Source of the DNA: Parcubacteria bacterium C7867-006
GTDB taxonomy: Bacteria > Patescibacteriota > Minisyncoccia > Phycocordibacterales > DATDWN01
Assembly: GCA_001189155.1 (NCBI GenBank)
Contig: LFCP01000004.1
Span: 68,782-132,781 of the forward strand
Length of the DNA stretch: 64,000 nt
Direction of reading: 5' to 3'
In this document: positions 2,963-59,690 of the stretch, in pieces
How the letters are laid out: each line of letters starts with the position of its first letter
Position numbering within the stretch: position 1 is the stretch's first letter
Translations under genes and position numbers: made by a program
Notes under the pieces: model-generated
Database searches by the model: none
Seen by the model: the letters and a program-made list of their open reading frames with translations, nothing else
Told to the model about the DNA's origin: nothing

Positions 2963-2995
2963 AGAAACAAATCAGCGACAAACAACAACGTAGAA

Positions 2996-3028
2996 GCCGG
3001 CGAGTCCTCCCAATGAAGACACGCCGGC
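2996..3028 (-). terminator. GC hairpin GCCGGCG-loop(agtcctCCCAATGAAGACA)-CGCCGGC, copy 1 of a duplicated hairpin, 9 nt after stop of small ORF 3037..3210
   Basis: 7-bp perfect stem; loop core cccaatgRagaca shared with copy at 3294..3321. Confidence 0.4.
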
Positions 3029-3036
3029 TCAACAAA

Positions 3037-3210
3037 CTATGCCCCAACAAGGGCCCTAGAACGTCCTCGAAGGCGAGGTCGAAGGTGAGAGAAAGCCTCT
3101 CTGCCGAGGCCGGGCCTCACCTCATCGAGGAGAGAGCCGGCAACACCAACGCACGCGAGGATGCAAGCGACGAGAACGGAACCTTTGACAAGCACTTCTT
3201 GGAAGTCCAT
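3037..3210 (-). CDS. small GC-rich hydrophobic protein (57 aa; MDFQEVLVKGSVLVACILACVGVAGSLLDEVRPGLGREAFSHLRPRLRGRSRALVGA)
   Basis: ATG with weak AAGGG SD; N-terminal TM-like segment; C-terminal PRLRG shared with ORF 3330..3530; followed by hairpin copy 1; upstream TTTGACG -35-like box. Confidence 0.3.
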   Translation of the reverse strand: MDFQEVLVKGSVLVACILACVGVAGSLLDEVRPGLGREAFSHLRPRLRGRSRALVGA

Positions 3211-3293
3211 GCACGGCCCTTTCGTCTAACTACCCAAAGATAATTATGTATTTTATTTATAAAAACGTCAAACAATCTTTATATAAACGAACA

Positions 3294-3321
3294 CCGGCGG
3301 CCCCCAATGGAGACACGCCGG
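3294..3321 (-). terminator. GC hairpin CCGGCG-loop(gcCCCAATGGAGACA)-CGCCGG, copy 2, 9 nt after stop of ORF 3330..3530, followed by T-rich tract
   Basis: 6-bp stem; loop motif shared with copy 1. Confidence 0.4.
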
Positions 3322-3329
3322 CAGTATAT

Positions 3330-3530
3330 CTATGTCCGAATCGCACCGCGAAGTCGAGGTGTATGCATATGGCACCTGATCCACACCCAGAAGGTAGAGA
3401 TAGAGCAATATGCGAAACACACAACAACGGCACAAAGAACATAGAAGACGATGAGGCAGATCACTCCGATGACAGTAGCTACCACTGTGGCAGCTATCAC
3501 CAAGAAAATGAGCAAGGCCTCCACGTACAT
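3330..3530 (-). CDS. small GC-rich transmembrane protein (66 aa; MYVEALLIFLVIAATVVATVIGVICLIVFYVLCAVVVCFAYCSISTFWVWIRCHMHTPRLRGAIRT)
   Basis: ATG overlaps stop of upstream ORF (TGATG coupling) with GGAG 3 nt upstream; about 35-residue hydrophobic stretch; terminator hairpin downstream. Confidence 0.35.
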   Translation of the reverse strand: MYVEALLIFLVIAATVVATVIGVICLIVFYVLCAVVVCFAYCSISTFWVWIRCHMHTPRLRGAIRT

Positions 3531-3739
3531 CAGCTCCAGTACGGAGAGTGGTCGAGCTTCGGAACCGTCCGTGGTCGAGCTTCCTCGTACCATCGTTCGG
3601 TGTGCCGGAGCACGACTTCCTTGGAAAGCGATGGCGAGTTCCACACCTCGGAGAAAGAACGCCGAGGTGCTTCGCTAACGATCACCACTCCATGAACGAC
3701 TGAAACCAGCCCGAAAAGCGCCTTAACGAGAGTTCCCAT
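3530..3739 (-). CDS. small GC-rich protein (69 aa; MGTLVKALFGLVSVVHGVVIVSEAPRRSF...) first gene of a 2-gene mini-operon
   Basis: strong SD GGGGAGGaagcggATG; N-terminal hydrophobic segment; TTGACA -35-like box at 3794..3799 just after uvrB stop. Confidence 0.4.
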   Translation of the reverse strand: MGTLVKALFGLVSVVHGVVIVSEAPRRSFSEVWNSPSLSKEVVLRHTERWYEEARPRTVPKLDHSPYWS

Positions 3740-3802
3740 CCGCTTCCTCCCCAAAGAGTGTCCTCTCTTTATTGTGTAATATTTATGATTTACTGTCAAT
3801 TA

Positions 3803-5908
3803 CTATCTCAGCAAGTCTTTGTTTCTAGGATTTACAATTTTTTTAGGTTTTTGTGACTCGAGAATTTTTTGTAGCTCAAGTATTTCATCTCTTAATATAG
3901 CGGCAGTTTCAAAATCTAATATTTTTACTGCACCATCCATTTGTTTTTCTTTCTGTCGTATTAGTTTAGCCGGATCTTTTTCTAACATTTTTTTATCAAC
4001 TTCCAACAAAGCAGAAACTGTTTTTTGATGTTCGTTTCGAAGCTGGTCAGTAATATCTTGAATTTTTTTGATAATTGTTTTTGGAGTTATGCCATGTTTT
4101 TTATTGTACTCCATCTGTAGTGTTCTACGTCTAGCAGTTTCATCTATAGCGTACTTCATAGATTTTGTAACTGTATCTGCATAAAGAATCACACGACCAT
4201 CTATGTTTCTAGCTGCACGACCAATAATCTGTATGAGTGAAGTCTCACTTCGGAGAAAACCTTCTTTATCTGCATCCAAAATTCCAATCAGTTTAACTTC
4301 TGGCAAATCCAAACCTTCTCGCAATAGATTTACACCAACAAGAACATCAAAAGTACCCCTTCGAAGATTTGTTAATATTTCAATTCTTTCTATTGTTTTG
4401 ATATCGCTATGAAGATACTCTGCCTTGATTCCCTTTTCTTTCAAATATTCACTCAGATCCTCTGCCATTTTTTTAGTTAGAGTTGTTGCGATTACCCTAC
4501 CACCATCTTTTATAGACTTCTCAGCCTCCTTTATAAAATCTTTCACCTGACCAGGATAACTCCCCTTTTCAACAATAGGTTTTACGTCTACAACTGGATC
4601 AATCAATCCTGTTGGTCGTATAACTTGTTCAACAACTTGTTCTGAATGTTCTTTTTCGTATGTACTAGGTGTAGCTGATGTGTAAATAACCTGTCCAACC
4701 CTCTCCTCAAACTCGTTGAACTTTAGAGGTCTATTGTCTTTTGCACTTGGAAGTCTGAAACCGAAATCAACTAGACTCTGTTTTCTGGAAGCATCTCCAC
4801 CGTACATCGCGCCGATTTGAGGAACTGACACATGAGACTCATCTATAACAGTCAAAAAATCTGGTGAGCCATCTTTATTGTGCGGAAAGTATGCAAGTAA
4901 TGTATCAGGAGCCTCTCCAGGTTTTTTACCAGAAAAATGTCGCGAGTAATTTTCTATTCCATTGCAATACCCCATCTCACGGATAAGTGCTAGATCATAT
5001 GTTGTGCGTCTTTTTAATCTCTCCGCTTCAAGATTTTTTCCTTCTTTCTCTAACTCCTTTAAACGTTTAGCCAATTCTGCCTTAATTGATTTAAATGCTC
5101 TCTCATTCTGCTCGTTAGTTGAAATAAAATGTTTTGCTGGAAAAAGGAAAAAAGCATCTACTTCTTTTATTATTCCACGAGTTATAGCATCAATAACTAA
5201 AATTTGTTTTATTTTACTTTCATCTATTTCAATTCGATAAATAACTTTTTCTGAAATGGGCATTATCTCTAACATATTACCTATAGCTCTGAACATTCCC
5301 GGTTTTAAGTCTGCAGTAGTTCTTTCAAAATGCACATCAATCAAGTTTCGAATAAAATCTGCTCTAGAAATTTTTTCTCCCTTACTGATTTTTACATTTA
5401 CTTTTTCATACTCAACAGGAGAACCTAAACCATAGATACAGGAAACTGACGCGACAATGATTACATCTTTTCTAGTTAAAAGAGCTTGTGTTGAAGCATG
5501 GCGAAGTCTATCTATCTCCTCATTTATCATTGCCTCTTTCTCTATGTATGTATCAGAAACTGGCATATAGGCTTCTGGCTGATAATAGTCATAATAAGAA
5601 ACAAAGTAATGCACGGCATTGTTTGGAAAAAATTCTCTATATTCCTGAGCTAGTTGTGCTGCGAGAGTTTTATTGTGAGCTATAACCAAAGTCGGCTTTT
5701 GAACCTCCTGTATAACGTTTGCAATAGTGTAAGTTTTTCCAGAACCAGTCACACCCAAAAGAGTCTGATGTTTCAGACCCTTTTTTACACCGTCGACCAA
5801 ACCCTTTATAGCTTTTGGTTGATCCCCAGCTGGAGGATATTCTCTTTTAATCTCAAATTTCATTTTCACACTATACAATAAATTTAGATATAGAAAAAGG
5901 CGACACAT
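3803..5908 (-). CDS. uvrB: excinuclease ABC subunit B UvrB (likely true start 5863, MKFEIKREYPPAGDQP)
   Basis: GVTGSGKT Walker A, helicase motifs, UvrB/UvrC interaction C-terminus; ORF-track N-terminal extension runs into a terminator hairpin loop. Confidence 0.95.
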   Translation of the reverse strand: MCRLFLYLNLLYSVKMKFEIKREYPPAGDQPKAIKGLVDGVKKGLKHQTLLGVTGSGKTYTIANVIQEVQKPTLVIAHNKTLAAQLAQEYREFFPNNAVHYFVSYYDYYQPEAYMPVSDTYIEKEAMINEEIDRLRHASTQALLTRKDVIIVASVSCIYGLGSPVEYEKVNVKISKGEKISRADFIRNLIDVHFERTTADLKPGMFRAIGNMLEIMPISEKVIYRIEIDESKIKQILVIDAITRGIIKEVDAFFLFPAKHFISTNEQNERAFKSIKAELAKRLKELEKEGKNLEAERLKRRTTYDLALIREMGYCNGIENYSRHFSGKKPGEAPDTLLAYFPHNKDGSPDFLTVIDESHVSVPQIGAMYGGDASRKQSLVDFGFRLPSAKDNRPLKFNEFEERVGQVIYTSATPSTYEKEHSEQVVEQVIRPTGLIDPVVDVKPIVEKGSYPGQVKDFIKEAEKSIKDGGRVIATTLTKKMAEDLSEYLKEKGIKAEYLHSDIKTIERIEILTNLRRGTFDVLVGVNLLREGLDLPEVKLIGILDADKEGFLRSETSLIQIIGRAARNIDGRVILYADTVTKSMKYAIDETARRRTLQMEYNKKHGITPKTIIKKIQDITDQLRNEHQKTVSALLEVDKKMLEKDPAKLIRQKEKQMDGAVKILDFETAAILRDEILELQKILESQKPKKIVNPRNKDLLR

Positions 5909-5916
5909 TGTCGCCT
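5898..5916 (-). terminator. perfect 8-bp hairpin AGGCGACA-cat-TGTCGCCT flanked by A5/T5 runs (bidirectional)
   Basis: seen directly; sits between GC-rich island 5920..6310 and uvrB start. Confidence 0.5.
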
Positions 5917-5919
5917 GGT

Positions 5920-6310
5920 GGTGGAACTACGGTTGGACTAGAAGACCCAACATATGGAGATCGTCGGGGGAAGAGTCCGACGACAGACCCATGGCAAGGC
6001 CTGGAGCGCGCTCCAAGGTTAGGTGGGGGTGGTTGCCCAAGACACCCAGTCCAACCGTGTTCCATTAGCAACACTACTACTTATTAAAAATTTGTCAAAT
6101 TGCTTTATATTAAATATAAAAAACGGCGATCCAAATGGACCAGCCGTGTGACGAGTGCGGTGGACAGTTGTCCACATAAAGAGCGTATTACAGTCTGCCG
6201 AAGCAAACTACACAGGTGGGTAGAATATCCTTCCCACGGTTATAGAGGCTTTATTCATCCTCTACCCAGACCGGGGTTATTACCTAAGTACATCACCCAC
6301 CTGAACTAAT
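5920..6310. ncRNA. candidate structured RNA(s) in GC-rich island, class unassigned
   Basis: about 55% GC island in AT-rich intergenic; long-range 11-bp helix 5929..5939/6048..6058, palindrome GGAGCGCGCTCC 6003..6014, 9-bp helix 6213..6221/6295..6303; only Pro/Arg-rich junk ORFs; no tRNA T-loop or RNase P P4 motifs found. Confidence 0.25.
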
Positions 6311-6336
6311 TGTAGCTCTATAAAAAAGAAAGTCAA

Positions 6337-7596
<1,260 letters not shown>

Positions 7597-11533: not shown

Positions 11534-11645
11534 GGGAGCTATTGTAACATAATTTTATGTAAAGAAATCAACACAAAGAGAAACTCCACACGAATGTAGG
11601 ACGTGGGAGTCCCTCATTTACGTGTGGAGTATGGCCAGCCGAGAG

Positions 11646-11786
11646 CTAACCACGAGTGAGGAAAGCGAGAAGAAGACCAGCGAGGAGAACCGCGCCAATC
11701 CAGAGCCAGTAGTTCGGCTTTTTCGTAGCCGAGTTCTGGATCTCACCACTTTCCGACGAATCGAGTCTGCCGAGCGTAACAGCCAT
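11646..11786 (-). CDS. small GC-rich tail-anchored membrane protein (46 aa; MAVTLGRLDSSESGEIQNSATKKPNYWLWIGAVLLAGLLLAFLTRG)
   Basis: strong SD AGGAGGGTG-ATG; C-terminal TM helix; GC-rich island 11590..11810; followed by 9-bp hairpin CTCCACACG...CGTGTGGAG plus TTT; not in ORF track (<60 aa). Confidence 0.35.
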   Translation of the reverse strand: MAVTLGRLDSSESGEIQNSATKKPNYWLWIGAVLLAGLLLAFLTRG

Positions 11787-11825
11787 CAGCACCCTCCTAG
11801 TATTAATGTTATCTAGTTAGAAAAT

Positions 11826-13296: not shown

Positions 13297-14184
13297 ATGC
13301 GTATCGCACGCTCGCTCGCTCTCGTTCTGTTGGTGTTTCTGTCGGCAACCAACGCTTTCGCCCAGAAGGGTGAATACGCTGTGCCGAAGGACGCCCAGCT
13401 CGAACAATATCCGGTACTCGAGGCCAACAAGCCTCTGACCGTGGTGCAGATCGCAGACATGCACTTGCATCCGATCCGGTTGGACAAACCGACCGTGGTT
13501 CAGAACCACTTCCGTGGACTACACGGAAAGGAAGGTCGATTCGTCGTCGAGACGTTGCCGAAAGGCACACTCGTTCTCGTCGACGAAAACAACAACCTCC
13601 GTTACAAGGAGGACTGCGGGAACCGGTTGGTGGAGTTCGACAATCAAGCACTCGTTCGGGGAATCATTTCCTCTGACAAGTTGTCTGAACCTGTTGTTGT
13701 CCACGATGGTGACACGCTGATTGTGTCGCCCGACAGTACGAAAGTCATCCCGGCAAAACCGATGATGAGTCTGTGGGATACAGTAGCTTCTACCGTTCGT
13801 AGAGGTGTTGAGTGGCTTACGCCATTTGCACATTTCATCGGATGGCTGCTACTTGCGATTCTCCTCTTCGGTATCATCTGGGCCGTCATCATGGCTGGCC
13901 TCGAGGATAGGGATAGGAGACGATACAATCGCAACCAGATGGTTGGTGATCAAACACACCCATCGCACCCGGCCGCGACTGTCCCGCCTCCTGCCCCAAA
14001 TGCCCCCGCAGCGACGACACCGGCAGCAGCTCCGGCCAATACTGAAAGGGCGTTTATCACCCACTCTGCTGGTAGCGGCTCAAATCCGCACCTTCTGCGG
14101 TGGGGAGGCTTGGACTTCCACAGCCTCGAGGTGGCACCGGACGGGGTTCACTCCCTGCGGTACCATCCCAGGACCAGTAAGTAG
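13297..14184 (+). CDS. GC-rich secreted, membrane-anchored protein of unknown function (signal peptide, ectodomain, one TM, Pro/Ala-rich tail)
   Basis: 295-aa ORF at about 57% GC; signal peptide MRIARSLALVLLVFLSATNAFAQ; TM LLLAILLFGIIWAVIMAGL; own promoter, SD and terminator. Confidence 0.55.
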   Translation: MRIARSLALVLLVFLSATNAFAQKGEYAVPKDAQLEQYPVLEANKPLTVVQIADMHLHPIRLDKPTVVQNHFRGLHGKEGRFVVETLPKGTLVLVDENNNLRYKEDCGNRLVEFDNQALVRGIISSDKLSEPVVVHDGDTLIVSPDSTKVIPAKPMMSLWDTVASTVRRGVEWLTPFAHFIGWLLLAILLFGIIWAVIMAGLEDRDRRRYNRNQMVGDQTHPSHPAATVPPPAPNAPAATTPAAAPANTERAFITHSAGSGSNPHLLRWGGLDFHSLEVAPDGVHSLRYHPRTSK

Positions 14185-18877: not shown

Positions 18878-18882
18878 AATCT

Positions 18883-18930
18883 AATTATAATACAAAAACC
18901 ACTAATTTAGTGGTTTTTGTATTATAATTA
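18883..18930. terminator. 48-nt near-perfect palindrome TAATTATAATACAAAAACCACTAAT/TAGTGGTTTTTGTATTATAATTA
   Basis: seen directly between cyt-b5 gene end and msrA start. Confidence 0.5.
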
Positions 18931-18936
18931 GAATTT

Positions 18937-20875: not shown

Positions 20876-23779
20876 TTATTGAGCGTTTGGATTCATTGAC
20901 CAAGGAATCAATTCTGGAAGTTGAGCCATCAACTCTGGACACTCAAGGTTATTTATCTTTGTAACTGTTGATAGATAAACTAGACCTGTTGCGCTTGTTA
21001 GTCCCCAAGGCTTTAGAACATCATCAGAATATTTTGTTTGGAAGTTTTTAACTACTCCGTATGTCATTGGTCCGTAGAAACCTGTGATAGGCAAACTTGT
21101 TCCCATATTTTTGTTCAAGAATTCTTGAAGTTTCTTAACCTGACTAGCATTGTTCTTTGAACTACCTAGTCTAAAGTGTGTATTCAAGTAAAGTCCGCAA
21201 GACTCACCTAGAACTTCACCTGCTGTAGTAGAAGCTCCCAAAACCTGACCTCCACCTCCTAGTGAACCTACAATAGGACCATTACCTCCACCTCCTCCAC
21301 TTGGTGGTGTTACTGGTGTAGGTGCTGGAATAAATGCAGCACAATCTGGGTCAGCTAGATCAACTAGTCTATCACCATCATTGTCTATACCATCAGTACA
21401 CAATGGCTGTGTGTTTTCTACTGGTTGTGCTGTAACAATAACTGTTCGTGTTGTACTAGTTGAAGCATCTTCACTGTCCATAGCTGTATAAGTAAGTGTG
21501 TATGTTCCTGGAGTTGATGTAGAAACTGTTCCAGTCACAACTATAGAGGAAGTAATATCTCCATCCTCTGGGTCTGTTGATGATGCACCTGGGTCAACAA
21601 ATGTATCACCTACTAGCAAGTTGATTGGGTTGTTTCCAAAAAGAGTAATGCTTGGTAAGTCGTTAACTGGTTTTATGTCAATAGAAACTGTTGCTGTACT
21701 ACTGTTTGTTACACCGTCGTTAGCAACAAATGTGAATGAATCAGAACCATTTTCGTTTGCATTAGGAGTATATGTAAATGCTCCTGTGTTTAAGTCAAAT
21801 GATGTAAGTGTTCCTTTTGTTGGGTTTGATGTTGTAGCAAATGTAAGTGTTTGTGCTGGAAGATCTACGTCAGTTGCAGTCATAGCTGTAGATGTTGCTG
21901 TATCCTCATCTGTTGAAACAGACAAGTCGTTTGCAACTGGTGCTTCATTTACTTCGTTAACTGTAACTTTAAAAGTTTTTGAATCCTGTAGAGCTCCATC
22001 AGTAACAGATGCTGTGAAGTTATAAACTCCAGGACCTTGGTCCTCTGCTGGTGTCCAATCAAATATTCCTGTTACAGAATCTAGTGTTACTCCAGATGGA
22101 ACTGAACCAACTAGAGAGTAAACTAAAGTATCAAGTGGACTATCTAGGTCATTAGCAGAAATAGTGAAGTTTAGATTACTCAATTCATTTACAACATAAT
22201 CAGAAATTACATTCAATATAGGTGCATTATCATTTACGTTTATAGTAACTGTTGCTGAACTAGTTAAAGTTCCGTCAGAAACCTCGTATGTGAATGAGTC
22301 TAGTCCTTGATAGTCAGTTGCTGGTGTATATGTGAACGATCCATCTGGATTCATTATTACACTAGCCCCAACAACTATTGGTTGAGTTAGAATAGAAAAT
22401 GTAAGTGTGTTTGGTAGAAGAGGAACCAAATCAGAGTCTGTAGCAACTACAGTGTCATTTACTGCTGTATTTTGGTGAGTTGATACTGTAAGAGACTGAG
22501 CAACTGGTGCAACATTTACTTCATTTACAACAACTGTTACTGCTTTTGTATCTGTTCCTCCATTTCCATCAGAAACTAATACATTAAAGTTATATGTTGC
22601 TGGGCCCTGATTCTCTGCTGGTGTCCAAGTAAATACTCCTGTAGAAGAATCTATACCGGCTCCTGTTGGTTCACCAGAAAGTGAGTATGTCATTACATCT
22701 CCAGAATCTACATCAGTAGCAGAAGCTGTAAATGATAGATTTGTAAGTTCATCTAGAGCCACAGATGTTGTTGTGCTTATAGAAAGTACTGGGTTATCAT
22801 TTACGGAGTTAACTGTAATAGAAACTGTAGCAGTATTACTATCTACTGTTCCATCATAAACTTTGAAGTTAAATGAATCAGAACCGTTGAAGTCTGCATT
22901 TGGAGTATATGTGAATGCACCTGTAGTTGAGTTGAAAGATGTTATTGTTCCGTTTGCTGGGTTTGAAGTTGTTGCGTATGTAAGAGAGTCTCCATCTATA
23001 TCAGAAGCTGCAAGGTTTGAAGAAACATCTGTATCTTCATTTATAGATATAGCAGTACTTGATGCAACTGGTGCATCGTTCTCTGGAGTAACAGTGATTG
23101 TTGTTGTTGCAACATTACTGTATCCAAGTCCATCAGAAACCTTGAATGAGAATGCGTCTCCTCCGTTATAGTTTAATGACGGAGTATATGTAACTTGATT
23201 ACCTGAAACAGAACCTAGAGTTCCGTGTGTAGGACCGTTTACAATGAAATATGTAAGAGGTTGTGCTGGAGTATCAGAATCTGTAGCTGTCATAGTCACA
23301 ACCTTTGCTGTATCTTCAGGTGTTGTTACTGAACTACCAGTTGCAGCAGGAGCTGTATTTGGAGGACAAGTTGGAACTATTTGAGTAGCATCAATCTGAT
23401 TATCTTTACCATTTGGTTTTGAGTGGTATACCATTACAGAAACAGTAGTTGTTGGAGTTGATGAATAGTGATGTGGTCCAGCTGAAAAAGTAAAACTGTA
23501 TGGTGAAGTTGTATCTCCTCCTAGGTCTAATGGAATATTTGTCTCTATGTCTCCCGTATTCCAAACAACCTGAACGTGATACTGGTCTATTTGACTACCA
23601 TTTGCTGGAGTTACAGTACCACTACCAGTTACTGTTAAATCAGTACCTAAACATGGATTTCCTGACGTAACAACAGAATCAATCGAAGCAGTTGGTTGAT
23701 CAGCTAATGCAACACTTGGGATGAGTGTGTATGGCACCGCCAAAACCAGAGTCAGAACTAACGAAGTTATTTTTTTCAT
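20876..23779 (-). CDS. large secreted adhesin-like protein: tandem cadherin-like/VCBS domains (VNDAPV, VNEAPVA, VNDNPV), DNDGD calcium motif, C-terminal peptidoglycan-binding domain
   Basis: signal peptide, >6 internally repeated about 95-aa modules, PG_binding_1-like C-terminus (LQEFLNK...GFYGPMTYGVVKNFQ). Confidence 0.7.
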   Translation of the reverse strand: MKKITSLVLTLVLAVPYTLIPSVALADQPTASIDSVVTSGNPCLGTDLTVTGSGTVTPANGSQIDQYHVQVVWNTGDIETNIPLDLGGDTTSPYSFTFSAGPHHYSSTPTTTVSVMVYHSKPNGKDNQIDATQIVPTCPPNTAPAATGSSVTTPEDTAKVVTMTATDSDTPAQPLTYFIVNGPTHGTLGSVSGNQVTYTPSLNYNGGDAFSFKVSDGLGYSNVATTTITVTPENDAPVASSTAISINEDTDVSSNLAASDIDGDSLTYATTSNPANGTITSFNSTTGAFTYTPNADFNGSDSFNFKVYDGTVDSNTATVSITVNSVNDNPVLSISTTTSVALDELTNLSFTASATDVDSGDVMTYSLSGEPTGAGIDSSTGVFTWTPAENQGPATYNFNVLVSDGNGGTDTKAVTVVVNEVNVAPVAQSLTVSTHQNTAVNDTVVATDSDLVPLLPNTLTFSILTQPIVVGASVIMNPDGSFTYTPATDYQGLDSFTYEVSDGTLTSSATVTINVNDNAPILNVISDYVVNELSNLNFTISANDLDSPLDTLVYSLVGSVPSGVTLDSVTGIFDWTPAEDQGPGVYNFTASVTDGALQDSKTFKVTVNEVNEAPVANDLSVSTDEDTATSTAMTATDVDLPAQTLTFATTSNPTKGTLTSFDLNTGAFTYTPNANENGSDSFTFVANDGVTNSSTATVSIDIKPVNDLPSITLFGNNPINLLVGDTFVDPGASSTDPEDGDITSSIVVTGTVSTSTPGTYTLTYTAMDSEDASTSTTRTVIVTAQPVENTQPLCTDGIDNDGDRLVDLADPDCAAFIPAPTPVTPPSGGGGGNGPIVGSLGGGGQVLGASTTAGEVLGESCGLYLNTHFRLGSSKNNASQVKKLQEFLNKNMGTSLPITGFYGPMTYGVVKNFQTKYSDDVLKPWGLTSATGLVYLSTVTKINNLECPELMAQLPELIPWSMNPNAQ

Positions 23780-24126
23780 AATTTTTATAAATTTAATAAT
23801 TTTTATAACGCAAAAACCGGCCTAAAAAGACCGGTTATGCTATTAGCTCCCCACAGCCCAAGCGTCCAAATACAGACTGTGGTTCATCGCCTTCTTTAGT
23901 AACAACTAAACCCTAAATATCTAACTAAATCGTATTCTACACTAACTTAAAATATCGTCAATGGTTGAGCAAATTCACTAAATTTTATTAAAATTGATTA
24001 AAAAATTAAATTATTATTATAAAAATATCATTTTTTTTAATTTTTTTAAAAAATAATGAAAATTTAGAAATTATAAAACTTCACAACGATGTGAAGTTTT
24101 ATAAAACAAAAACTAGAAAACTTTTG

Positions 24127-26751: not shown

Positions 26752-26864
26752 AATTAATTAAATTCTATTTAATACCTAATTAAATAATAAAAACTGTCTC
26801 GCACGGTACTGTAGACGATTATACCATCTATTCATTACAAAGTTTTACATCTTATTAACAGTAT

Positions 26865-26902
26865 AAAAAACAACCTCGCGGACTCCCGAAGGAGCCGCGA
26901 GG
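26865..26902 (-). terminator. GC hairpin CCTCGCGGCTCC-ttcg-GGAGTCCGCGAGG plus T6 (on minus strand)
   Basis: 12-bp stem with one bulge, 4-nt loop, T-run. Confidence 0.55.
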
Positions 26903-26919
26903 CGTTGAGACGAGTGAAA

Positions 26920-27516
26920 CTAGAACACGTCGCCCGAGGTCCCCTCCGAAGAGTTGACCCAATTGTCGCTGATACCGTGGTACACCCACCCCCAGAATTC
27001 GTATGAGTAGGTGTTGACCGTGAAGTACGTAGTGAGCCAGGAAGCGTAACCGGGACAGTTGCCATTGATGTCGCAGGCGTAGTCCACGATGCCGATGTTA
27101 CCCTTGGTCTTCCAGGCCGGCGCCGGGTTGAGAACTCCGTCGATGATGAGCACGTACCCGCCCTCGAACGTTCCGTCTTCCTCACCGGTAAGGGGTCCGT
27201 TGTTGCCGGGGCTGGTCTGCCCAGCCTGGGCGTCGAACTGGCCGGAGTTCCGAACCACCGCGCAGTACTTGCCGTCGGGCTGAGCCCACACCTGGATCGT
27301 ACGGTTGAGATCGTCGAAGGCCCAGTTGTTGCCGGCGAGACCGGAATCCACGTCATGGATGACCTTACCCGTAACGTTGATGACCGGGGGGCCAACACGC
27401 TGGCAGGTGCCAGCGTTGACCTGGGTACCCCAGTTGAGGTTCTCGCGAGGATCAGCATTCGCATGGGAGACGACCCCCAGGACACTGGCCAGGACAGCGC
27501 ACCAAATAAACTTCAT
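26920..27516 (-). CDS. GC-rich secreted Trp/Gly/Asn-rich protein of unknown function (198 aa)
   Basis: about 58% GC; signal peptide MKFIWCAVLASVLGVVSHANA; AAGGAG SD; own terminator; overlapping alternative-frame ORF 26835..27485 is Arg/Pro-rich junk. Confidence 0.5.
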   Translation of the reverse strand: MKFIWCAVLASVLGVVSHANADPRENLNWGTQVNAGTCQRVGPPVINVTGKVIHDVDSGLAGNNWAFDDLNRTIQVWAQPDGKYCAVVRNSGQFDAQAGQTSPGNNGPLTGEEDGTFEGGYVLIIDGVLNPAPAWKTKGNIGIVDYACDINGNCPGYASWLTTYFTVNTYSYEFWGWVYHGISDNWVNSSEGTSGDVF

Positions 27517-59223: not shown

Positions 59224-59552
59224 AATATTTTATTGCTAACTAATAAGAGAGAAGGGCTTTTAAAGAAAAAGCCACTTCTTATAACTCTGCAGTAAACAAA
59301 GTTATCCGAATGAGTGACATTTTAGGTAGACTATCTAGGTTTGTATTCAAATTATAGAACGATAGGGGCCAAAAAGTCGATATGACTTATCCACAGATAT
59401 TTAATCATGTCAAGAGTGTAAAGAATGTAAATCGCTTCGCAGGGATTGAGTGATGTGATAGGGTGGAAAAATAGCACCCAAAAGTGCTATGATAAGAGCA
59501 CAATTTAATAAGTATAAGTAGCCTAAACCTAGTTTTCACTAGGCATGGTGAA

Positions 59553-59690
59553 AAGTCCTATCAAGCATAAAGAACCCATCATGGGGTCGCTTGATAGGCC
59601 ATATCGGGAAACCGGTATGAGAGACTTCGGTCTCTACCCGTGGTGGGCTTTTTGTGTATCTGCCACGGCATTAGCAAGTCCTATCAAGCA
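59553..59690 (+). promoter_or_regulatory. structured leader: 15-nt direct repeat AAGTCCTATCAAGCA (59553 and 59676) plus inverted partner GCTTGATAGG (59589) and hairpin GAGAGAC-ttcg-GTCTCT followed by T5
   Basis: seen directly; second repeat covers the RBS of the HNH gene; middle arm can pair with either flanking copy. Confidence 0.3.

Follow-up and report, generated by a model that had tools for sequence, protein, structure and literature searches.

Two tandem candidate small RNA genes with predicted structure between tgt and uvrB of a Parcubacteria genome

Two predicted RNA units on the minus strand

In a 64,000-nucleotide (nt) stretch of the genome of Parcubacteria bacterium C7867-006 (contig LFCP01000004.1, positions 68,782 to 132,781), which we call the window and to whose positions all coordinates refer, a GC-rich island lies between tgt, which encodes queuine tRNA-ribosyltransferase, and uvrB, both of them on the minus strand. 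We propose that this island contains two tandem, lineage-restricted small RNA (sRNA) genes, D2 and D1, which are predicted to be structured, are encoded on the minus strand of a hypervariable accessory locus and belong to no described family; from the sequence evidence presented below, we give this reading a probability of about 0.6. Anatomy, strand, the lack of a known family and the structure-preserving changes in homologues are shown directly, and transcription, the exact RNA ends and function are predictions. Judged by related loci, the genome belongs to the candidate phyla radiation (Patescibacteria), near Paceibacteria and Zambryskibacteria bins. The place of the island between these two genes had been stated in an initial annotation, and the open reading frames (ORFs), together with the Pfam domains of their homologues, bear it out. 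The sequence of the tgt–uvrB locus is identical in a JGI contig and in a Logan contig (DNA records JGI 3300001199 and SRR2043728), two records that are not necessarily independent samples, and this identity argues against an assembly artefact. Related loci that were compared with the window are designated by L-numbers (L001, L162 and so on).

The initial annotation had described a single candidate RNA of about 400 nt, with two domains separated by an AT-rich linker. The linker is there (6066-6117, 19% GC), but since the linker region contains a terminator (6124-6146, followed by T6) and then a promoter-like TTGACA (6093-6098), two transcription units and not one RNA are predicted. A consensus scan returned two intrinsic terminators, and both belong to the minus strand: one at 5916..5898, with a T-run behind it, and one at 6142..6127, which can be extended by eye to 6146..6124 and is followed by T6. 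The hairpin at 5898-5916, previously listed as a separate upstream feature, is present, but it corresponds to the 3′ terminator of D1; as the T-run follows it there, it would work on the minus strand only. Both units lie on this strand, a point that had been left open. The terminator of D2 is the sole one after tgt and includes a G-U pair that only a minus-strand RNA could form; L162 and L165, two of the closest relatives (Tgt 89-93% identical, identified in a large protein database, after which the contigs were fetched), have a different terminator sequence at this position. No terminator lies between tgt and D2, and therefore read-through from tgt must include D2, whose terminator also has to end the tgt transcripts.

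The consensus scan also detected a minus-strand promoter match, TTGACT-16-TACAAT (10 of 12 positions), directly after the tgt stop codon. Both hexamers are kept in L162 and L165, with a varying spacer, and an equivalent site is found in L161, L166, L169, L175, L005, L006 and L010. The promoter-like site of D1 aligns with TTTACA-16-TATAGT of L162 and L165. Placed 7 nt past the −10 hexamer, the predicted transcription start (+1) coincides in both units with the first paired base of the closing stem (6303/6302 in D2, 6064 in D1), so that both RNA ends would be held in a helix. At the consensus level, each unit has its own promoter and Rho-independent terminator between protein-coding genes, as a stand-alone sRNA gene does, and the positions of these signals are kept in L162 and L165. 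According to this arrangement, D2 would start at the sigma-70-type promoter after the tgt stop codon and stop at its intrinsic terminator, and D1 would start at the second promoter-like site, in the AT-rich linker, and stop at the 5898-5916 terminator.

In the minimum free energy (MFE) fold of D1, a closing stem of about 17-20 base pairs (bp), interrupted by one bulge, encloses a small hairpin, two further helices and two outer hairpins. The MFE amounts to −66 to −79 kcal/mol, with z −5.2 to −5.5 against dinucleotide shuffles; the D1 of L162 has a z of −5.5 in the same kind of control. The 11-bp pairing reported for this region, 5929-5939 (acggttggact) with 6048-6058 (agtccaaccgt), is a perfect complement by direct reading, but it forms only part of the closing stem, which reaches about 20 bp in the fold. 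The palindrome GGAGCGCGCTCC was also found, at 6003-6014. For D2, the fold shows an irregular hairpin of 91 nt (P1-P2-P3) that is followed by two short hairpins and by the terminator (z −3.5 against dinucleotide shuffles). Its closing stem carries GGUGG/CCACC, and the 9-bp pairing 6213-6221 (caggtgggt) with 6295-6303 (acccacctg) and the nested GGGTAGA (6218-6224) and TCTACCC (6261-6267) could be confirmed. The two short hairpins (6160..6210) are not conserved in L162 and L165, in which this region is replaced. In each of the six elements compared, the fold of the gene strand is more stable than that of the opposite strand, by 2.6-10.7 kcal/mol. As a control, two other GC-rich islands, beside tRNA-Gln, gave z values of −1.3 and −0.3 and are not unusually stable. 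The GC content of 5880-6330 is 46%, and not the approximately 55% of the initial annotation; by parts, it is 59.5% in 5917-6064, 49% in 6118-6303 and 36-38% in tgt and uvrB.

The island has no counterpart among known RNA families. A scan of the whole window with Rfam 15 (cmscan, gathering threshold) gave nothing at the island, but recovered LOOT, c-di-GMP-II and tRNA in other parts of the window. When 5700-6500 was scanned permissively (E ≤ 10), there was no credible match: the best had an E of 0.13, none covered the paired cores, and the matches (rliF, SraG, Yfr1 and RAGATH-25) were at chance level only, all far below the gathering scores. No riboswitch or aptamer class matched the island in these scans, and ARAGORN detected neither a tRNA nor a transfer-messenger RNA (tmRNA) there; the class of the RNAs is thus unassigned, as had been suggested before. 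When eight related loci were scanned permissively, their intergenic RNAs gave no match, and the single match, with an E of 0.94, lies elsewhere. By reading the sequence and the folds, we saw no 6S-type central bubble, no GNAR/AGCA motif of the signal recognition particle (SRP) RNA and no RNase P P4 sequence, and our literature search found nothing on such RNAs in Patescibacteria.

Two RNA elements elsewhere in the window were recognized in the Rfam scan. LOOT (RF03000), another orphan structured RNA, is full-length at 59520-59635 on the plus strand and scores 88.2 bits against a gathering score of 46.4. A c-di-GMP-II riboswitch aptamer (23820-23903, minus strand, 63.4 bits) lies about 40 nt upstream of the ORF 20876-23779 (minus strand), whose 967-amino acid product has bacterial Ig and cadherin-like repeats and a peptidoglycan-binding domain. 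Given the upstream aptamer and these domains, this protein is probably a surface adhesin controlled by c-di-GMP.

Structure-preserving changes and the reach of D1 and D2

In three separate records, L162, L163 and L165, the elements follow one another as in the window: first a promoter, a D2-like RNA and a terminator, then a second promoter, a D1-like RNA and its terminator, and finally the uvrB promoter. The L161 contig stops 109 nt past tgt, yet it covers the D2 hairpin. Between the window and L162, D1 can be aligned along its 5′ 45 nt and its 3′ 40 nt, and not in the middle. The shared core amounts to 29 pairs, and 96.4% of its cells are standard pairs. We observed that four pairs changed on both sides and five on one side, mostly to G-U; in addition, 1 bp was deleted on both strands and one bulged A became a pair. 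Pairing breaks at helix ends only, and it falls to 24-45% in a control in which the 3′ partner was slid by 1-3 columns. The G-U pairs are A-C mismatches on the opposite strand and fit the gene strand only. The unpaired 13-nt GGGYAACCACCCC block differs at one of its 13 positions, against a difference of 40-44% at the third-codon positions of tgt and uvrB when these two genomes are compared.

For D2, four sequences could be compared (window, L162, L165 and L161). In P1 and P3, 91.1% of the cells are paired and 6 of the 14 pairs changed on both sides; none of 500 shuffles reached this covariation score, and the slid controls pair at 42-52%. The homology of P2 among the relatives is uncertain, and the peripheral hairpins differ completely between the window and the relatives. 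The helices noticed in the initial annotation are therefore kept by compensatory changes in the few homologues available, and in hand-anchored alignments of two (D1) and four (D2) sequences, the secondary structure of the D1 core and of the D2 stems is conserved through covariation.

The divergence between L162 and L165 is a mosaic: 6.1% in tgt, 5.9% in the uvrA part and 30%, with indels, in the 3′ part of D2, against 0-1% from the D1 promoter through uvrB and the small-ORF block. This pattern indicates recent recombination, with one breakpoint inside or adjoining D2, and recombination thus shapes the locus.

Beyond these relatives, the reach of both units is short. A covariance model of the D1 core, R2, in which a GAAA loop replaces the variable hairpins, gave 76.5 bits on the minus strand of the window, 18.1 on the plus strand, and 58.8 in L162 and L165; with this model and a motif search, 1.5 Mb of related DNA yielded no D1 core apart from those of the window, L162 and L165. 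Scans of genomes and metagenomes with Tgt provided 160 further loci, none above 85% identity, in which neither D1 nor D2 was detected by blastn (7-nt words) or nhmmer. Searches with blastn of the units against phage and plasmid collections, and of a degenerate D1-core pattern against viral contigs, returned nothing, and the 64 kb hold no second copy of D1 or D2 (blastn with 7-nt words; search for GGUGG-closed stems). D2-type RNAs occur in L004, L005, L166, L169 and L175, but they share only the promoter, the GGUGG/CCACC closing stem from +1 and the terminator.

Table 1. Positions of the two predicted RNA units and of their flanking features in the window
Feature	Position	Strand	Basis and remarks
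tgt coding sequence, upstream neighbor	6337..7545	−	402-amino acid ORF; homologues with PF01702 TGT
D2 promoter-like site, TTGACT, 16 nt, TACAAT	6309..6336	−	Consensus scan, 10/12 matches; predicted function
D2 small RNA, ~185 nt: 5′ irregular hairpin, two short hairpins, terminator	6118..6303	−	Predicted ends
D2 5′ domain: P1 CAGGUGGGU/ACCCACCUG, P2 CCCCGGU/ACCG-GGG, P3 GUAGAGG/CCUCUAU	6213..6303	−	MFE fold
D2 short hairpins	6191-6210 (UUCG loop), 6160-6175	−	MFE fold
D2 terminator, CGGC(U)GGUCC-AUUU-GGAUCGCCG then U6	6118..6146	−	Terminator scan, extended by eye
D1 promoter-like site, TTGACA (6098..6093), 16 nt, TAGTGT (6076..6071)	6071..6098	−	Read directly; predicted
D1 core, 143 nt	5922..6064	−	MFE fold; unit with terminator ~170 nt (6064..5894)
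D1 P1 closing stem	6047-6062 with 5924-5940	−	MFE fold
D1 H1 hairpin and conserved GGGYAACCACCCC block	6025-6047	−	MFE fold
D1 P2	6018-6024 with 5945-5951	−	MFE fold
D1 P3	6011-6015 with 5955-5959	−	MFE fold
D1 variable hairpins P4/P5	5960-6010	−	MFE fold
D1 terminator, GGCGACA-AUG-UGUCGCC then U5	5894..5916	−	Terminator scan, 8 pairs
uvrB extended −10 (TTGTATAGT)	5861..5878	−	~6 nt before ATG 5861-5863; predicted
uvrB coding sequence, downstream neighbor	3803..5863	−	Protein start MKFEIKREYPPAGDQP; homologues with UvrB Pfam domains

The variable tgt–uvrB gap and competing explanations

The order tgt then uvrB is a conserved arrangement, but the size of the gap varies: in 100 related loci it measures 0 to 3097 bp, and in about a third of them it is shorter than 100 bp. 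Relatives with a Tgt 77-85% identical to that of the window (85-92% in the N-terminus of UvrB) have no insert, or an unrelated one. In L001, L002 and L081, the gap holds a pilin-like ORF and a 150-nt RNA with a 14-bp closing stem; in L003, L083 and L164 it holds two different RNAs, and between L003 and L083 the helix GACUCAACC/GGUUGAGUC becomes GGCUUGACC/GGUCGAGUC, a structure-preserving change in another RNA at the same locus. The gap of L005 contains an RNA with seven copies of GCAAAACC in a large loop (~7290-7350), and that of L004, L020, L082 and L173/L174 contains small GC-rich ORFs that by eye resemble excisionase/MerR-type helix-turn-helix (HTH) proteins. These ORFs hint at mobile-element traffic through the site; no integrase was seen in the stretches of these loci that were read. 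For most units in filled gaps, a TTGAC-type promoter and a terminator could be recognized on the gene strand, and 39 of the 62 filled gaps include a 100-nt stretch more than 10 GC points richer than the flanking genes.

Tandem motif arrays were also seen in or after RNAs of other relatives: CTCTCGTT repeats where the contigs L166 and L168 break off, and TTCGTTAC repeats in L175 (~3905-3935). Such arrays could be binding-site arrays or simple microsatellite growth. A CUCUCGUAC motif before the terminator, shared by L165, L171 and L175, was considered and dropped, as it is not statistically solid. The titles of the records of near relatives disagree (uncultured Alphaproteobacteria, Candidatus Saccharibacteria, Parcubacteria, Paceibacterota, Zambryskibacteria) despite their 77-85% identical Tgt, and these labels are unreliable.

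Several observations weigh against two functional sRNA genes. When the MFE was regressed on GC content over 150-nt windows of the whole 64 kb, a control that is sensitive to the window register, D1 lay only 2.0 and D2 only 2.5 standard deviations below sequence of equal GC from the same genome; the thermodynamic signal is therefore modest, and stability alone would not carry the case. The −10 hexamer of D1 is weak (3 of 6), which is why the consensus scan did not report this site. Homologues are very few, two distinct sequences for D1 and four for D2, and the register of both covariation alignments had to be fixed manually by N padding, since MAFFT and RNAalifold on the raw sequences put the stems out of register. 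The two-sequence shuffle control for D1 is weak and has little power (29/500), and the identity of D1 in L162 and L165 comes from the recent recombinant block, so that it is uninformative on selection. A single-sequence covariance model of the D2 hairpin found only itself in 536 kb, and for this reason the homology of D2 rests on position, promoter, closing-stem motif and shape. Finally, none of the evidence gathered points to a target, partner or ligand. In the same regression, the most over-stable 150-nt window (−4.9 standard deviations) is a perfect 26-bp AT-rich inverted repeat with a 1-nt gap, located at 18880-18932 between two minus-strand ORFs.

The main rival explanation takes the island as insertion debris at a recombination hot spot, that is, as functionless GC-rich fragments, for instance remnants of small foreign or mobile genes, that fold through their GC content and carry promoters and terminators by descent. 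The range of gap sizes, the unrelated content of the gap in close relatives (a pilin ORF, HTH/excisionase-like ORFs, different RNAs, short tandem repeats), the mosaic of L162 and L165 with its break inside D2, the modest stability excess over GC-matched windows and the confinement of D1 to one narrow lineage are all in line with it. Against this, helices were kept via compensatory and G-U changes while the adjoining outer hairpins were replaced, and the unpaired GGGYAACCACCCC block is far better conserved than synonymous sites; promoter hexamers were kept while spacers vary, the base of the closing stem coincides exactly with +1 in D1 as well as in D2, and the RNA of L003 and L083 shows the same kind of change at the same locus. 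With so few sequences, the compensatory changes and the conserved block argue only weakly against debris, which we nevertheless consider unlikely. A more speculative proposal, which we regard as rather unlikely, is that the tgt–uvrB junction of this Paceibacteria-like clade is a dedicated landing site for strain-specific cassettes of promoter, structured RNA and terminator under diversifying selection. The ends of the cassettes (promoter, GGUGG/CCACC closing stem at +1 and terminator) would then be kept, and their interiors would be swapped or rebuilt between strains faster than synonymous sites, with tandem motif arrays in some relatives. If so, these RNAs may be protein decoys or sponges, or phage/host-interaction RNAs of episymbiotic bacteria, and not ordinary regulatory sRNAs.

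A cis-regulatory role, with D1 as a riboswitch-like leader of uvrB and D2 as a structured 3′ untranslated region and terminator of tgt, is suggested by the P1-closed, multi-helix junction of D1, with a terminator 5 nt on and a same-strand ORF 30 nt further, as well as by the necessary inclusion of D2 in tgt read-through. However, uvrB seems to be served by its own promoter. Its true start is the ATG at 5861-5863, and not the upstream ATG of the mechanically called ORF (5908); an extended −10 lies 6-12 nt before this ATG across the window and the relatives, with or without an insert, and no Shine-Dalgarno (SD) sequence is present. Downstream of the D1 terminator lies a block, TTTTTCTATATCYAAATTTATTGTATAGTRTG, that L001, L002, L081, L162, L164 and L165 have conserved, and the insert-free relatives L007, L085, L012, L086, L015 and L170 have the same TGTATAGT or a TGnTATAnT motif adjoining the uvrB ATG. 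The uvrB mRNA is thus probably leaderless and made from its own promoter, from which D1 is insulated by its terminator, and because of this conserved extended −10 beside an SD-less ATG, D1 is unlikely to be a uvrB leader. Read-through from D1 would place the uvrB ATG in a transcript without a ribosome-binding site; by inspection, no convincing alternative pairing between P1 and the terminator (antiterminator) was found, and the closing stem, with its approximately 20 bp, is highly stable. Moreover, most relatives express uvrB without a D1-type element, no riboswitch family matches and D2 has its own conserved promoter, which together make the cis-regulatory reading improbable.

Divergent housekeeping RNAs are known from candidate-phyla-radiation genomes, and the sizes of D1 and D2 (~150-185 nt) and their closing stems are not unlike 6S RNA. 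That the Rfam models missed a housekeeping RNA (6S, SRP, RNase P, tmRNA or similar) because of strong divergence is nonetheless close to refuted: no family matched even with permissive filters, the characteristic 6S, SRP and RNase P features were not seen, ARAGORN was negative, close relatives have an empty or unrelated site, and 1.5 Mb of related DNA lack the D1 core, whereas much stronger conservation would be expected of a housekeeping RNA. Of the "divergent or novel RNA" in the initial annotation, the lack of a matching family stands, but neither unit resembles a divergent housekeeping RNA, as the sequences are confined to a single narrow lineage and most relatives have nothing, or something different, at the locus. 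We give hardly any credence to small protein-coding genes. The island does contain ORFs of 52-69 amino acids, and other GC-rich islands of the window encode small ORFs with SD sequences behind similar TTGACT promoters; but the ORFs of the tgt–uvrB island are SD-less, rich in Pro and Arg and cross terminators and promoters, they are not retained in L162 and L165, where the same helices are kept instead, and the peptides that follow the SD-like GGUGG have 5-12 codons and are different in every relative. The island is therefore most likely non-coding, as had been proposed.

Other candidates were evaluated and rejected. A pairing between D1 and D2 (AGGUGGG/CCCACCU) has 7 bp in the window and only 5 bp in L162, with no covarying extension, and a tRNA-like 3′ end (CCACCA after P1) is not conserved in L162. 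An integron attC site has the inverse core RYYYAAC at its 5′ end and the core GTTRRRY at its 3′ end; the D1 stem has GTTGGAC on the 5′ arm and GTCCAAC on the 3′ arm, the reverse order on either strand, the stems of the relatives lack core motifs, and no integrase was found among the nearby scanned ORFs. A retron RNA, omega RNA, bridge RNA, CRISPR RNA or guide-RNA partner was dismissed since no adjacent gene for a reverse transcriptase, TnpB/IscB, an IS110 recombinase or a Cas protein was found, the neighbors tgt and uvrB being housekeeping genes, and no CRISPR-type repeats were seen. A MITE (miniature inverted-repeat transposable element) or a repetitive extragenic palindromic (REP) sequence was discarded because the island is single-copy in 64 kb and neither a transposase nor a target duplication was observed. 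Ten ORFs between 269 and 13070 were scanned, with no reverse transcriptase, integrase, transposase or cas gene among them; they are housekeeping genes (UvrA, FKBP, pseudouridine synthase, SLOG, XseA, VTT, DEAD helicase) or small ORFs with no Pfam match.

Surroundings, significance and comparison with known systems

GC-rich islands (55-68% GC against 36% in the genome) were also observed at 2973-3780 (minus strand, between uvrB and uvrA), at 11644-11787 (minus strand) and from about 34038 onward (plus strand). They encode small ORFs with SD sequences behind TTGACT-type promoters, such as 3530-3739, 3330-3530 (hydrophobic) and 3037-3210, which have no Pfam match; L162 and L165 have three small ORFs at the position equivalent to 2973-3780. 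Longer, possibly coding ORFs without Pfam matches lie in GC-rich stretches (up to 71-75% per 80 nt) at 13297-14184 (plus strand) and 26835-27485 (minus strand), with overlapping ORFs on both strands.

Under the proposed reading as two sRNA genes, our best guess is that D1 and D2 are stable RNAs that act in trans, as parts of an accessory locus with fast turnover and not as members of the core set of housekeeping RNAs. D1 would bind a protein or a ligand through its conserved unpaired block, rather than act by simple antisense pairing, since its closed, branched architecture, the conserved unpaired block and the replaceable outer stems fit a binder better than an antisense regulator. The noncoding RNAs of the candidate phyla radiation, whose members have tiny genomes, little spare DNA and a dependence on other cells, are almost unstudied. 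Two well-folding, separately promoted candidate RNA genes between core genes of DNA repair and tRNA modification suggest that accessory RNA genes exist beyond the current family libraries, and the exchange of the content of the locus between close relatives fits this picture. Confirmed expression would make D1, with its conserved core, conserved unpaired block and replaceable outer stems, a promising candidate for a new RNA class, and the locus would be a defined place to study the birth and turnover of RNA genes in streamlined genomes. If they are silent debris, they would serve as a warning that GC-rich, well-folding islands in AT-rich genomes do not by themselves evidence function.

Among known systems, REP/BIME sequences and MITEs resemble the island in having a GC-rich inverted repeat that flanks a short segment between genes, but D1 and D2 are single-copy in 64 kb, have G-U pairs that fit one strand only, and carry their own promoter and terminator. 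The leaders of transcriptional riboswitches share with D1 a P1-closed junction, conserved unpaired nucleotides, variable outer stems and a terminator before a same-strand ORF; in contrast, uvrB has its own promoter at the start codon, and D1 has neither an antiterminator that we could find nor a family match. 6S RNA (RF00013) is likewise stable, highly paired, similar in length and closed by a long stem, with its own gene among housekeeping genes. D1 and D2 differ from it in having no Rfam match at E ≤ 10 and no large two-sided bubble, D1 is branched, and they are not conserved across relatives. LOOT, an orphan motif of a kind known mainly from metagenomes, is like D1 and D2 a structured RNA of uncultivated bacteria that was recognized by comparative signals only; however, it is a curated family with many members, whereas D1 and D2 comprise two to four sequences and no family.

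The closest likeness in gene organization can be drawn with trans-encoded sRNAs, such as the C-rich RsaE/RoxS type of Firmicutes, which are transcribed from a sigma-70 promoter of their own and end at a Rho-independent terminator. D1 and D2 have no sequence or Rfam relation to them, no identified seed or target and no known chaperone in the lineage, and base-pairing sRNAs of this kind are typically less closed and helix-rich than D1. Nevertheless, like these sRNAs, D1 and D2 are stand-alone intergenic units of 150-190 nt with a promoter, a structured body and an intrinsic terminator, and D1 shares with them pyrimidine- and C-rich unpaired stretches (CCACCCCCACCU).

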